Shown: positions 27,869 through 31,848 of the stretch, one piece after another
Position numbering within the stretch: position 1 is the stretch's first letter
How the letters are laid out: each line of letters opens with the position of its first letter
Assembly (NCBI RefSeq): GCF_016903815.1
Contig: NZ_CP069973.1
Reading direction: 5' to 3' (one strand)
Length of the DNA: 64,000 nucleotides
Origin: Escherichia coli
GTDB lineage: Bacteria > Pseudomonadota > Gammaproteobacteria > Enterobacterales > Enterobacteriaceae
Program-made: the position numbers and the translations under genes
Notes under the pieces: model-generated
What the model saw: only the letters and a program-made list of their open reading frames with translations
The model's database searches: none
Told to the model about the DNA's origin: nothing

Positions 27869-28153
27869 ATCAACCTCCGATAATCAGTGAAGCGTGAAAA
27901 TAGAAAACGATAGTGAAACACTGTTTTGTTTTCTCTATAAAGGGATGATATGCCCATGGGCTAGGGTTTTCAATTAAAAATAAAACAATGTTTCATTTTA
28001 AGTTAAGGATTAAAAAAAGTGCAGTGTCGATCACGAATATGTCATGAGAATGGAAAAATGAGGGAGCCCAGAAAATGTATGTCGACTTGCCAGCCATCAT
28101 TATTCAACAGATTAATGACGGCAGATATTTATCGGTAAGGAGGAAATGCAGAG

Positions 28154-29335
28154 CTATTCGTCACGTTCAATGGTCAATGCCACACCCTGGCCCCCGCCGA
28201 TACAAAGCGTTGCCAGTCCTTTGCGGGCATTACGTTTCACCATTTCATGAACCAGAGAAACCAGGATTCGGCAACCGGAAGCGCCTATCGGGTGACCAAG
28301 TGCGATCGCACCACCATTGACATTGACCCGACGCTCATCCCACTCAAGCATCTTGCCAACCGAAAGCGCCTGTGCAGCAAACGCTTCATTAGCCTCGATA
28401 AGATCGACATCAGCCAACTGCCAGCCTACACGCTCCAGGCAACGGCGGGTCGCATACACCGGCGCAATTCCCATCAATGCCGGATCTACACCAACGCTGG
28501 CAAATGCGCGAATGCGGGCCAGCACGGGTAAATTCAACGCTCGTGCTTTGGCTTCGCTCATCATCATTACCGCAGCTGCGCCATCGTTTATGGATGATGC
28601 ATTACCCGCTGTCACAGAACCGAGACTATCAAATGAAGGATTTAAACGGGCTAAACCTTCTGCACTGGCGTCAGTGCGTGGCTGTTCATCGGTATCAACA
28701 ACCAACGTCTGACCGTTACTTTGGGTCATTACCGGGACGATCTCATCTTTAAATCGTCCGGCGTCAATCGCCGCTCGCGCTTTTTGTTGCGAGCTAAGTG
28801 CGTAAGCATCCTGCAATTGACGGCTGATGCCATATTCGCGAGCCAGATTTTCGGCGGTGACACCAATATGATAATCATTGAAGGCATCCCATAACCCATC
28901 ATGCACAAGACTGTCAACCAGCTGGCTATTGCCAAGCTGTGCACCGGTGCGGCTATCAGTCAGAACATGTGGTGCGCGGCTCATGTTTTCCTGGCCACCG
29001 GCGATGACAATATCAGCCTCGCCACACTGTATCGCCTGAGTAGCCAGATGCAGTGCTTTAAGTCCGGAACCGCAGACGTCATTAATCGTGATTGCAGAAA
29101 CGCTATTAGGCAGACCACCTTTAATAGCCGATTGCCTTGCCGGATTCTGCCCTGCCCCTGCAGTCAACACCTGACCAAGAATTACTTCATCCACCGCATA
29201 TGCAGGAACGCCGGTACGTTCTATTAACGCTTTCACGACCAGACTACCAAGTTCCACGGCGGAATGACCCGCTAACGCACCGCGAAAGCAGCCGATAGGT
29301 GTCCGTAACGCCCCGACAATCACAACGTCTTTCAT
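28154..29335 (-). CDS. yqeF: Acetyl-CoA C-acetyltransferase (thiolase II family)
   Basis: About 393 aa; MKDVVIVGALRTPIGCFRGALAG and the thiolase active-site region. Confidence 0.88.
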   Translation of the reverse strand: MKDVVIVGALRTPIGCFRGALAGHSAVELGSLVVKALIERTGVPAYAVDEVILGQVLTAGAGQNPARQSAIKGGLPNSVSAITINDVCGSGLKALHLATQAIQCGEADIVIAGGQENMSRAPHVLTDSRTGAQLGNSQLVDSLVHDGLWDAFNDYHIGVTAENLAREYGISRQLQDAYALSSQQKARAAIDAGRFKDEIVPVMTQSNGQTLVVDTDEQPRTDASAEGLARLNPSFDSLGSVTAGNASSINDGAAAVMMMSEAKARALNLPVLARIRAFASVGVDPALMGIAPVYATRRCLERVGWQLADVDLIEANEAFAAQALSVGKMLEWDERRVNVNGGAIALGHPIGASGCRILVSLVHEMVKRNARKGLATLCIGGGQGVALTIERDE

Positions 29336-29589
29336 CACAACCTCGCACCAATTAACAGTGCAATAGTAAATGATTGTTAATTACAGTTATCTTAATTGTT
29401 TAAAAAAAGTGATTTTTATCACAAAGGAAATATGCCTGAGCAGTAGTCAGAGTCATAACTGGCACGTAAGGTTTGCAACCACTAACCCACCAATAGAGGG
29501 GTAGATAGGGCGTTAATCTCCCATACTTAACCTGGTTTATGGTAAATTGCCCTCCATTTTGTTTAATTTGTAGATGATACGTTCAGATA

Positions 29590-30819
29590 ATGTCTAATAT
29601 TTGGTCTAAAGAAGAAACTCTGTGGAGTTTCGCGCTCTACGGCACAGCCGTTGGTGCAGGCACGCTCTTCCTTCCTATTCAGTTAGGTTCGGCAGGGGCT
29701 GTGGTCCTGTTTATTACTGCTCTGGTCGCCTGGCCTTTAACATATTGGCCACATAAAGCCTTATGCCAGTTCATCCTCTCATCGAAAACATCAGCAGGTG
29801 AAGGGATAACGGGCGCAGTAACACACTACTATGGCAAGAAGATTGGTAATCTGATTACCACGCTGTACTTCATCGCCTTTTTTGTCGTCGTGTTGATATA
29901 TGCAGTGGCAATTACCAACTCACTTACGGAACAGCTGGCAAAGCATATGGTTATTGATCTTCGCATCCGTATGTTGGTGAGTCTGGGTGTTGTATTAATC
30001 CTGAATCTCATTTTTCTGATGGGACGCCATGCAACCATTCGGGTAATGGGTTTTTTGGTATTCCCATTGATTGCCTATTTCTTATTTCTTTCCATTTACC
30101 TTGTCGGTAGTTGGCAACCTGATCTATTAACGACCCAGGTAGAGTTCAATCAGAATACCCTTCACCAGATATGGATATCGATTCCCGTGATGGTTTTCGC
30201 CTTTAGCCATACGCCCATTATTTCTACGTTTGCCATAGACAGACGTGAAAAATATGGCGAACACGCTATGGATAAATGCAAAAAAATTATGAAAGTCGCT
30301 TATCTCATCATCTGCATAAGTGTACTGTTCTTTGTCTTTAGCTGCTTGCTTTCTATTCCACCTTCGTATATTGAAGCGGCTAAAGAAGAAGGGGTCACCA
30401 TTTTATCGGCGCTTTCTATGCTGCCGAACGCCCCAGCATGGCTGTCAATTTCCGGGATTATTGTCGCAGTAGTTGCGATGTCGAAATCATTCCTGGGTAC
30501 GTACTTTGGCGTTATTGAAGGTGCCACGGAGGTCGTCAAAACAACACTACAGCAGGTTGGTGTAAAGAAAAGTCGTGCATTTAACCGCGCACTATCAATT
30601 ATGTTGGTATCGCTGATCACCTTCATTGTTTGTTGCATTAACCCGAACGCGATTTCGATGATTTACGCGATCAGCGGCCCGCTCATTGCCATGATACTTT
30701 TCATCATGCCTACGTTGTCAACGTATCTGATCCCGGCGCTTAAACCCTGGCGTTCCATCGGAAATCTGATTACGCTGATCGTGGGTATCCTGTGCGTATC
30801 GGTAATGTTCTTTAGCTGA
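29590..30819 (+). CDS. yqeG: Putative amino-acid transporter (HAAAP / serine-threonine permease-like)
   Basis: 409-aa polytopic membrane ORF; the position after yqeF matches the K-12 order. Confidence 0.8.
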   Translation: MSNIWSKEETLWSFALYGTAVGAGTLFLPIQLGSAGAVVLFITALVAWPLTYWPHKALCQFILSSKTSAGEGITGAVTHYYGKKIGNLITTLYFIAFFVVVLIYAVAITNSLTEQLAKHMVIDLRIRMLVSLGVVLILNLIFLMGRHATIRVMGFLVFPLIAYFLFLSIYLVGSWQPDLLTTQVEFNQNTLHQIWISIPVMVFAFSHTPIISTFAIDRREKYGEHAMDKCKKIMKVAYLIICISVLFFVFSCLLSIPPSYIEAAKEEGVTILSALSMLPNAPAWLSISGIIVAVVAMSKSFLGTYFGVIEGATEVVKTTLQQVGVKKSRAFNRALSIMLVSLITFIVCCINPNAISMIYAISGPLIAMILFIMPTLSTYLIPALKPWRSIGNLITLIVGILCVSVMFFS

Positions 30820-31218
30820 TATCCATTGTGAATGGTTCAAAATTGCTACAATTTTGAACCATTCCAGTTTTCATAATGTTCATTCGTTATTATTCCGCAC
30901 TATCACTTCCCTCATCATATCCTAGTATTATCAGTTAGTTAAACACACAAAGAGATCTGAACATCTTAAATAAGACTATTTAAGATGCATAACTTAGATT
31001 CGCAAGATATCTTCCGGTCATTCAAAAACAATTTGCGATATAGATATTCTCATACCATGAGATAGTTATCTGAACCACCCTCAACCAGGTAAGATTAAAT
31101 CAGTGAAACATAATCATATTTAATAACGAGAAATGCATTTTAAAATGTCTTAATCAGAATTATAGCAAATACAGATTAATCGCAATTTTTCCCAGCAAAA
31201 TTACAAAATCATGGTATA

Positions 31219-31848
31219 TTGACATCATCAATCACCAATGAAATTATGCAATTATATACGGATAGGGAGGTTCTTAACATGGGGCTTTGTAGTCGTTATA
31301 AAAGTCTTACATGCAATAGTTGCTCAATGCATTGCCAAATAATGCCAGAAGAGTCACCGCGTTTGCAGTACTGCGCAAACTCGTGTTTTTGTATGTGGCC
31401 CGAAGAAAGTTCATATTTTAATCGTGGTGTGGTAGAAGGTATCTTAACAAAAAACCACAATGCGAGATTAAGCGGATATATTTTTGTCGATTTTTCAGTA
31501 AGTTTTTTACGTCTATTCCTTGAAAAAGACTGGATTGACTATCTTGCAAGTACTGACATGGGGATTGTTTTAGTCAGCGACCGCAATATGCAATCGTTAG
31601 CTAATTACTGGCGAAAACACAACTCAGCAATATCTGCTGTCATATATAATGATGATGGTCTTGATGTTGCCAATGAAAAGATCAGACAACTATTTATTGG
31701 TCGTTATTTATCATTTACCAGAGGTAACACATTAACTCAGATGGAATTCACCATAATGGGGTATATGGTTTCTGGTTATAATCCATATCAGATTGCTGAA
31801 GTTCTGGATATGGATATCCGTAGCATCTATGATCTTACCCAGCAATAG
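31219..31848 (+). CDS. yqeH: LuxR-type regulator YqeH, 3' end replaced by IS3 (native sequence ends at 31829; last 6 codons and stop are IS3-derived)
   Basis: 209-aa ORF in an AT-rich region. The reading frame runs into the IS3 left inverted repeat, so the C-terminus ...IRSIYDLTQQ is chimeric. Confidence 0.6.
   Translation: MTSSITNEIMQLYTDREVLNMGLCSRYKSLTCNSCSMHCQIMPEESPRLQYCANSCFCMWPEESSYFNRGVVEGILTKNHNARLSGYIFVDFSVSFLRLFLEKDWIDYLASTDMGIVLVSDRNMQSLANYWRKHNSAISAVIYNDDGLDVANEKIRQLFIGRYLSFTRGNTLTQMEFTIMGYMVSGYNPYQIAEVLDMDIRSIYDLTQQ

Follow-up and report, generated by a model that had tools for sequence, protein, structure and literature searches.

The AT-rich yqeF-yqeG-yqeH block of an Escherichia coli chromosome as a probable junction of ancestral backbone and an ETT2 stub

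Why is the DNA around yqeF, yqeG and yqeH so rich in AT, and was it imported as one piece? The block in question (27870-31220) lies in a 64,000-nucleotide window of Escherichia coli contig NZ_CP069973.1, the window being the whole stretch of DNA that was analysed, which was 100% identical to the chromosome of E. coli strain 222 (NZ_CP020516.1) by megablast when all 64,000 bases were compared. A preliminary description had taken the block for a horizontally acquired and likely H-NS-silenced segment bordering the former ETT2 (the second type III secretion system of E. coli) island, near which insertion sequence (IS) activity concentrates. We consider it probable, at roughly 0.8, that the block is the junction of ancestral backbone and the stub of an H-NS-silenced ETT2, and not one imported segment.

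On this account, the DNA to the left of about position 30994 would be ancestral Enterobacteriaceae backbone consisting of yqeF (with normal GC), yqeG and ordinary AT-rich regulatory DNA, namely the promoter of kduI and its KdgR-like operators, the divergent yqeF/yqeG promoter and the yqeG terminator. The DNA to the right would be the left stub of ETT2 (the yqeH promoter region and a truncated yqeH), foreign in composition and variable among strains. An IS3-associated deletion from about codon 184 of yqeH to inside ygeQ would have removed the remaining island, and an IS1-associated deletion would have taken 31 kb beyond actS. The AT richness of yqeG would have two reasons, since the gene encodes a membrane permease with low GC at first and second codon positions (GC1 and GC2), and since yqeF and yqeG would have drifted to lower synonymous GC in Escherichia. 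The tract 29350-31924 would then be a natural substrate of H-NS and StpA, in keeping with related strains, in which kduI, yqeF and yqeG are bound and yqeH is strongly silenced. Composition, boundaries, synteny, strain distribution and IS structure were analysed here, and H-NS binding and de-repression are taken from the literature on other strains.

Compared to K-12, the window was collinear over 24000-31829 at 98.5% identity, up to nucleotide 551 of yqeH, and collinearity picked up again at 33088, inside ygeQ, with ~10.2 kb of the K-12 ETT2 remnant (yqeI to ygeP) missing from the window. The first ETT2 gene, yqeH, was cut at about codon 184 by IS3. The resulting yqeH' (31279-31848, + strand), which is annotated as a 189-aa "hypothetical protein" and was recognised by the comparison with K-12, comprised ~183 native codons followed by ~6 codons from the end of IS3. 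This is a truncated LuxR-type regulator gene of ETT2; the truncation falls inside the GerE helix-turn-helix of K-12 YqeH (residues 151-195), and a Pfam search of the window YqeH' protein returned zero matches.

The edges of the island were located with the two empty-site genomes examined, FDAARGOS_1287 (locus L005) and the B2 strain SE15, both of which carry yqeG, a 316-bp spacer, glyU, actS and xdhA in succession and wholly lack ETT2. Aligned to the window, the empty-site allele joined 30993 straight to 33706 with an overlap of 8 bp, which places the island at 30994-33705. Accordingly, the spacer between yqeG and yqeH has two parts: 174 bp of core DNA (30820-30993, + strand; 31.0% GC) that are kept in the empty-site genomes, and the left end of the island, 285 bp upstream of yqeH (30994-31278, + strand; 30.5% GC), absent from FDAARGOS_1287 and SE15. 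At the other edge, the right-hand ETT2 remnant (33088-33705, - strand; 40.6% GC), made up of the N-terminal part of ygeQ (ygeQ') and its upstream DNA, aligned with positions 20295-20976 of the K-12 locus and was likewise absent from the empty sites; the core spacer next to glyU (33706-33859, - strand) follows at 33.1% GC. The island DNA surviving here therefore amounts to ~1.45 kb (30994-31829 and 33088-33705, with 35.0% and 40.6% GC, respectively). The true core/island edge thus lies inside the yqeG-yqeH spacer, at ~30994, which corrects the earlier picture in two places. The third AT-rich stretch, described as 30820..31220, is indeed AT-rich, but it ends at 31278, where K-12 yqeH starts, and is a composite of core and island DNA. 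The statement that the block borders the former ETT2 island was essentially right, with yqeH as the first ETT2 gene, except that the block straddles the border instead of adjoining it.

The assignment of the stub to ETT2 agrees with a review in which this island is 29.9 kb long, adjacent to glyU, 36.9% in GC and repressed by H-NS (PMC11068852). As in ETT2 elsewhere, the site lies between yqeG and glyU, the terminal genes are yqeH and ygeQ, GC is low and deletion is variable and often accompanied by IS elements. Both terminal genes were found next to glyU, in the K-12 order relative to yqeG and glyU and with 98.5% identity to K-12. Presence varied among strains: of 5,426 complete E. coli genomes, 3,970 had 30820-31829 in full, many others matching over the first ~170 bp alone, and the empty-site allele supplied the 30993/33706 junction. 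The two remnants had low GC, and yqeH' had both a low GC at third codon positions (GC3, 33.7%) and the most atypical codon usage of the window (z = 5.8). A functional type III secretion apparatus or regulators were not found: every apparatus gene is missing, and of yqeH and ygeQ only a truncated copy and a fragment, respectively, remain. The window thus differs from ETT2 as known elsewhere in retaining only ~1.45 kb of it, and yqeF and yqeG lie outside the island.

In contrast to the stub, which varies among strains, yqeF (28154-29335, - strand) and yqeG (29590-30819, + strand) were nearly universal. YqeF is a thiolase (acetyl-CoA C-acetyltransferase; Pfam Thiolase_N and Thiolase_C) and YqeG an amino-acid permease (Pfam Trp_Tyr_perm). 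With presence defined as coverage of at least 80% at an identity of at least 95%, yqeF-yqeG (28154-30819) was found in 5,393 of the 5,426 complete E. coli genomes (99.4%). In a scan across genera with one genome per species, the order kduD-kduI-yqeF(-)/yqeG(+) was kept in ~60 loci, each from a different species, of ~20 Enterobacteriaceae genera. Syntenic YqeF orthologs from ~20 genera had 83-94% identity. YqeG orthologs were present in 80 loci, at 97-99% identity in other Escherichia and 79-92% outside the genus, falling from 90-92% in Salmonella and Citrobacter to 84-87% in Enterobacter, Kluyvera and Lelliottia and 79-82% in Klebsiella and Raoultella; Enterobacter alone stood at about 86% and Klebsiella at about 81%. 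In several genera yqeG is followed by glyU-actS; the gap between them varies from 0.9 to 5 kb, which marks the glyU side as an old hotspot of variable DNA.

The low total GC of yqeG (44.9%; GC1 45.6%, GC2 38.8%, GC3 50.2%) was also found throughout the family. Relative to kduD of the same genome, yqeG was lower by 4.8 ± 1.6 points in 60 species; in the same species its GC3 followed that of the host (r = 0.82), with a mean GC3 difference from kduD of +0.012. Because the offset is family-wide and GC3 follows the host, the low total GC of yqeG stems from the encoded protein, a hydrophobic permease whose gene has low GC1 and GC2, and does not signal a foreign origin. Thus, none of three signs of an island was found for yqeF-yqeG: it is not variably present among strains, it is not missing from the syntenic position in related genera (~60 species), and its composition is not atypical independently of the host, yqeF having 53.2% GC and yqeG a GC3 that tracks the host. 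Judged by these sequence comparisons, yqeF and yqeG would not count as horizontally acquired. The claim of horizontal acquisition stood for yqeH and the island part of the third spacer, and did not stand for yqeF-yqeG, whose identity follows the phylogeny. These two genes should not be annotated as an acquired segment, despite predictors that flag yqeG.

Salmonella, Citrobacter, Enterobacter, Klebsiella, Kluyvera and other genera have a further gene pair in the yqeF-yqeG interval, where a gap of ~1.65 kb holds a LysR-family regulator and a PACE/BTP-family (PF05232, 'chlorhexidine efflux') transporter (6437-7859 of locus L011 and 6452-7884 of locus L025, both from other genera). The gap is merely 210-255 bp in Escherichia, Pluralibacter and Superficieibacter, and both loss and gain of the pair are possible.

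The AT richness itself was confirmed. GC was 35.1% over 27900-28150, 35.9% over 29340-29590 and 30.2% over 30820-31220, against a window mean of 51.2%. The block as a whole had 44.7% GC, and the lowest window of equal length (3.35 kb) outside the locus had 47.4%, so that the GC profile differed from that of the flanking core genes and the AT signal is real. The core segment yqeF-yqeG by itself (45.8% GC) was below every window of the same size elsewhere in the 64 kb, and yqeF with its two spacers (47.9%) fell at the 5.7th percentile of equal-sized windows. The signal was not uniform, however. Unsupervised, entropy-based segmentation placed change-points at 29350, in the yqeF/yqeG promoter spacer, and at 31924, dividing the region into 26201-29349 (50.3% GC), 29350-31924 (39.7% GC; ~2.6 kb with 60% AT, covering the yqeF/yqeG promoter, yqeG and yqeH'), 31925-32785 (56.9% GC, within IS3) and 32786-33860 (41.5% GC); the flanks of the two AT-rich segments had 50-52% GC. 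Since the AT-rich domain begins at 29350, in the yqeF/yqeG promoter, yqeF lies outside it, with a GC content above the window mean and a GC3 of 47.2%. The description of an AT-rich block spanning all three genes therefore held as far as these are the lowest-GC 3.35 kb of the window, but not as a uniform domain starting at 27870.

The spacers likewise had low GC when set against core genes, but the proper baseline for them is intergenic DNA. Across the window's 35 intergenic regions with a length of 50 bp or more, GC averaged 42.2% with a standard deviation (SD) of 6.7. Relative to these, the kduI-yqeF spacer (27869-28153, 285 bp; 36.1% GC) and the yqeF-yqeG spacer (29336-29589, 254 bp; 36.2% GC) ranked only sixth and seventh lowest (z ~ -0.9) and are unremarkable. 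Only the yqeG-yqeH spacer (30820-31278, 459 bp; 30.7% GC) was near the extreme, being second lowest and level with the core araE-kduD spacer (30.9%). Codon usage, compared with the rest of the window, gave a similarly divided result: yqeH' (37.5% GC) was strongly atypical, whereas yqeG (z = 4.3) and yqeF (z = 3.4) deviated only mildly and to an extent comparable with the core gene uacT (3.8); values for kduD, kduI and araE were near 0.

The contents of the spacers point to regulatory functions. The first spacer, on the downstream side of yqeF, is the regulatory region of kduI and contains a promoter-like site at 27973-27945 (- strand) as well as two palindromes resembling KdgR operators (27912-27930 and 27979-27997). 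The sequence AATGAAACANTGTTTCATT, which we take to be the KdgR operator consensus, matched twice in the whole window when up to 3 mismatches were allowed, each time in this spacer, against 0.03 matches expected by chance. The two palindromes upstream of kduI are thus candidate KdgR boxes, as would be expected of a KdgR-regulated kduI-kduD promoter region if this consensus is right. In 31 other species the kduI-yqeF spacer had 39.8 ± 2.4% GC, 16.6 points under its flanking genes, and the offset in the window was equal. The second spacer is the divergent promoter region of yqeF and yqeG, each end of which could be aligned, with 72-82% identity, to sequences from Salmonella, Enterobacter and other genera. 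In the third, a perfect 16-bp hairpin followed by a T-run (30830-30864) is the predicted intrinsic terminator of yqeG, and a sigma-70 promoter-like site near consensus (TTGACA-17-AATTAT, with TG upstream; 31219-31247) lies ahead of yqeH. RNA polymerase peaks were reported in the K-12 yqeG-yqeH spacer by SELEX (systematic evolution of ligands by exponential enrichment; PMC5493296). From such signals and alignments, the spacer DNA on the core side of the island edge is best taken to be ancestral regulatory DNA.

Synonymous sites showed a second, lineage-specific component of the AT richness. In the four Escherichia genomes sampled for this comparison, GC3 was lower than that of kduD of the same genome by 0.08-0.13 in yqeF and by 0.05-0.10 in yqeG; the same offsets averaged ~0 in 58-59 other species (SD 0.037), which puts Escherichia at z ~ -1.8 to -3.5. 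GC3 of kduI and araE was normal in Escherichia. At synonymous sites, yqeF and yqeG thus show a modest AT drift that is specific to this lineage. Low expression may be its cause, and it is probably the reason that predictors based on composition tag yqeG as horizontally transferred.

The proposal that the block is likely H-NS-silenced gained support from published data on related strains only. Chromatin affinity purification sequencing (ChAP-seq) of H-NS in K-12, SE11 and SE15 found the coding regions of kduI, yqeF and yqeG to be bound (Higashi et al., PMC4720273), along with the kduI/yqeF intergenic region, listed with the known kduI promoter, and the yqeF/yqeG intergenic region (PMC4720273 table S3). 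SE15 was considered as a ChAP-seq strain sharing the arrangement of the window and was set aside, being an empty site. For the island side, PMC12460168 flags K-12 yqeH and yqeI as horizontally transferred and places them within H-NS hairpins; it gives log2 fold-changes of 1.9 in hns, 5.1 in hns stpA and 5.2 with netropsin for yqeH, and of 1.3 in hns and 4.1 in hns stpA for yqeI. De-repression of the two genes in the hns stpA double mutant is about 30-fold. An 11.4-kb K-12 fragment that starts inside yqeF and includes yqeG (2,985,045-2,996,445) formed H-NS hairpins in vitro (PMC12460168), and H-NS-associated "promoter islands" were described from yqeH/yqeI onward (PMC3661553).

In the window, extended AT-rich tracts of the kind expected of H-NS regions were present at 29350-31924 and 32786-33860. 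The nucleation motif TCGATAAATT (tCGATAAATT), allowing up to 2 mismatches, was barely above average, with 6 occurrences in the block, a density of 1.8 per kb where the window as a whole has 1.4. By analogy with the related strains, we infer that H-NS probably occupies 29350-31924 in the window strain too. The resemblance to xenogeneic silencing by H-NS/StpA through hairpins (CHINs; PMC12460168) lies in the 2.6-kb tract and in the hairpins formed by the orthologous K-12 region; unlike the ~11-kb K-12 domain, however, the tract in the window is far shorter and is broken by the GC-rich IS3, so that hairpin formation may differ from that in K-12. Overall, the feature is already known biology: ETT2 is the textbook degraded, AT-rich, H-NS-silenced and IS-riddled island, and H-NS binding at kduI, yqeF and yqeG has already been tabulated.

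Several points weigh against reading the block as a junction of backbone and a silenced ETT2 stub. Three composition-based predictors of horizontal gene transfer (HGT) coded yqeG as H/L/N (PMC4720273 table S2; codes as interpreted here), and yqeG and yqeF deviate mildly in codon usage, though core uacT does so to a similar degree. The empty site of the B2 genomes may be either the ancestral state or a clean secondary deletion. In addition, 'bound' in PMC4720273 means bound in at least one of the three strains, none of which is the window strain. The first two of these points would fit the whole yqeF-yqeG-yqeH block with its spacers being a single horizontally acquired AT-rich segment, part of ETT2 or co-acquired with it, as would its rank as the lowest-GC 3.35 kb of the window, the H-NS binding of all three genes, and a review that, in loose terms, includes yqeF and yqeG in what is 'left in ETT2' in certain strains of E. 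albertii (PMC11068852). We nevertheless regard this as very improbable. A gene with 53.2% GC sits in the middle of the supposed segment, yqeF-yqeG is syntenic with kduDI in ~20 genera and present in 99.4% of E. coli genomes with identities that follow phylogeny, the pair is still in place in strains without any ETT2, and the low GC of yqeG is seen again in each genus, shifted by a constant amount relative to the host; on the sequence evidence, synteny and distribution largely refute a single import.

The remaining alternatives concern the backbone itself. The AT richness of the core could be a matter of ordinary composition, with promoter and terminator DNA lying by chance beside a membrane-protein gene and H-NS and the island having no special role there. 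The sixth and seventh ranks of the first two spacers among 35, the equally AT-rich araE-kduD spacer, the family-wide GC offset of yqeG and the near-average density of nucleation motifs all agree with this, but the yqeF-yqeG core segment is lower in GC than any same-size window elsewhere in the 64 kb, GC3 is depressed specifically in Escherichia, and H-NS binding has been published for these genes and spacers, which together leave this explanation doubtful, though less so than a single import. Conversely, the island may have shaped its flank. If ETT2 was inserted next to yqeG in an ancestor of Escherichia, H-NS/StpA filaments could have spread from it into yqeG and the yqeF/yqeG promoter, and poor transcription, relaxed codon selection and AT-biased mutation would in turn have lowered synonymous GC, making the AT-rich block partly a consequence of the island. 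The AT-rich, H-NS-bound domain would then reach ~1.6 kb past the ETT2 edge into the core, and the GC3 drop of yqeF and yqeG would be an evolutionary footprint of silencing. The restriction of the GC3 depression to these two genes and to Escherichia, with kduI and araE normal, fits such a course, as do the H-NS-bound coding regions of yqeF and yqeG (PMC4720273), the start of the H-NS-hairpin fragment inside yqeF with yqeG included (PMC12460168) and the argument that H-NS-bound core genes diversify faster (PMC4720273). However, Citrobacter amalonaticus and C. sedlakii, in which a yqeH homolog lies past yqeG, show no depression of yqeG GC3, and in the ETT2-less SE15 and FDAARGOS_1287 the YqeG protein is unchanged and the DNA 97% identical. 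Loss of the LysR regulator/PACE transporter pair in Escherichia, if it was a loss, would offer an alternative cause of low expression, and the effect is modest in size and was seen in a sample of four Escherichia genomes. Spread from the island into the flank, footprint included, is therefore unlikely, and in our view ranks between chance composition and a single import. If it were true, a neighbourhood effect of xenogeneic silencing would slowly make core flanks foreign-like and mislead composition-based HGT predictors; the AT drift of yqeF and yqeG is thus a possible test case for whether silencing reaches into the flanks of islands and affects their composition.

Returning to the junction of backbone and ETT2 stub, the loss of most of the island is tied to IS elements. 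The observation that IS activity concentrates here was borne out, as IS3 and IS1 are the sole annotated IS elements in the 64-kb window and lie within 3.8 kb of each other, and IS1 or IS2 occur at the locus in other strains, the ETT2 of K-12 carrying IS2. AT richness and H-NS may underlie this concentration, AT richness having been proposed as a partial explanation at the outset, or the dispensability of the DNA may be enough. IS3 (31830-33087, + strand), annotated as an "IS3-family element", was full-length at 1,258 bp and over this whole length matched plasmid-borne IS3 copies at 99.8% identity. Two places differed from the reference, one at 31994 and one in the stop codon of the transposase (TAG to TAT, 33055-33057); with the stop codon lost, orfB continues beyond the IS on its right and ends at 33117, in ygeQ' DNA. 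This accounts for the label "incomplete" given to the transposase by PGAP, the annotation pipeline, whose reading of IS3 as a mere IS3-family 'fragment' was rejected in favour of a complete element with a mutated stop codon. A search for inverted repeats at the IS ends gave nothing, the terminal repeats of IS3 being imperfect, and the ends were settled by the end-to-end match. The 3-bp target-site duplication expected of IS3 was not found, the flanking triplets being cta and gaa, so that IS3 marks an IS-associated deletion, here one that begins near codon 184 of yqeH and ends midway through ygeQ, and not a simple insertion. The junction of yqeH codon ~184, full-length IS3 and ygeQ was common to ~306 of the 5,426 genomes.

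A second deletion lies on the far side of actS, where a complete IS1 of 768 bp (34879-35646, - strand) stands in place of 31,092 bp of K-12 DNA (3,000,003-3,031,094, xdhA to ygfT), with junctions at K-12 positions 3,000,002 and 3,031,095. Its flanks, AATTTCATT and AAGAGCGCT, differ and hence contain no target-site duplication. In E. coli EC291 (locus L006, 6038-8565), IS1 flanks glyU-actS on both sides in the order yqeG-IS1-glyU-actS-IS1-idi, and ETT2 is entirely lost together with xdhA through uacT; from these arrangements, IS1-mediated deletions appear to be recurrent at the locus. Complete IS3 and IS1 copies, each at a K-12 deletion junction without target-site duplication, resemble the products of both IS-mediated adjacent deletion and recombination between two IS copies, and either may have been the mechanism, as the two are indistinguishable from a single genome. 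The IS1-associated deletion also removed a xanthine dehydrogenase, purine-catabolism and selenium-linked gene cluster from this strain.

The neighbouring genes were taken from the annotation. To the left of the block lie araE (24508-25926), kduD (26241-27002) and kduI (27032-27868), all on the - strand; to the right of IS3 follow the ygeQ fragment, annotated as a pseudogene (33089-33634, - strand), the tRNA-Gly gene glyU (33860-33933, - strand), actS (34012-34767, - strand) and, past IS1, uacT (starting at 35919, + strand). The gene names yqeF, yqeG and yqeH given at the outset were correct according to the annotation and the K-12 comparison. An Rfam scan of 25800-36000 at E-values up to 1 found no structured RNA in the spacers, the matches being glyU and one chance-level CRISPR-DR inside yqeF, and a search for direct and inverted repeats in 27800-34000 found nothing above short chance-level matches except the hairpin of the yqeG terminator.

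Some minor features were seen at the island site and its surroundings. The 8-bp overlap at the island edges (30986-30993 and 33706-33713; GATTCGCA and GATTGCAT) fits microhomology deletion or chance. Close to glyU, on its 3' side (33741-33836), are two short direct repeats, TACAACAAAATGG and TACAACAAAAATGG, with a spacing of 77 bp, and these 77 bp are missing in K-12. An att-like duplication was considered for this position and rejected, since K-12 differs here just by an indel of 77 bp that is flanked by short TACAACAAAA(A)TGG repeats; it looks like a small repeat-mediated indel. In Escherichia sp. MOD1-EC7003 (locus L007, 5592-9590), araE lies ~1 kb from yqeG and glyU 290 bp past yqeG, and kduD, kduI and yqeF had zero tblastn matches in the locus, an arrangement that resembles an empty site plus another deletion on the opposite side. 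Finally, in Citrobacter sedlakii and C. amalonaticus (loci L010, L012, L013 and L016), a YqeH homolog with 78-79% identity is encoded ~1.9 kb downstream of yqeG, with weak YqeI-like matches nearby, a hint that in a second genus, too, this hotspot holds regulatory cargo that is related to ETT2 or similar.

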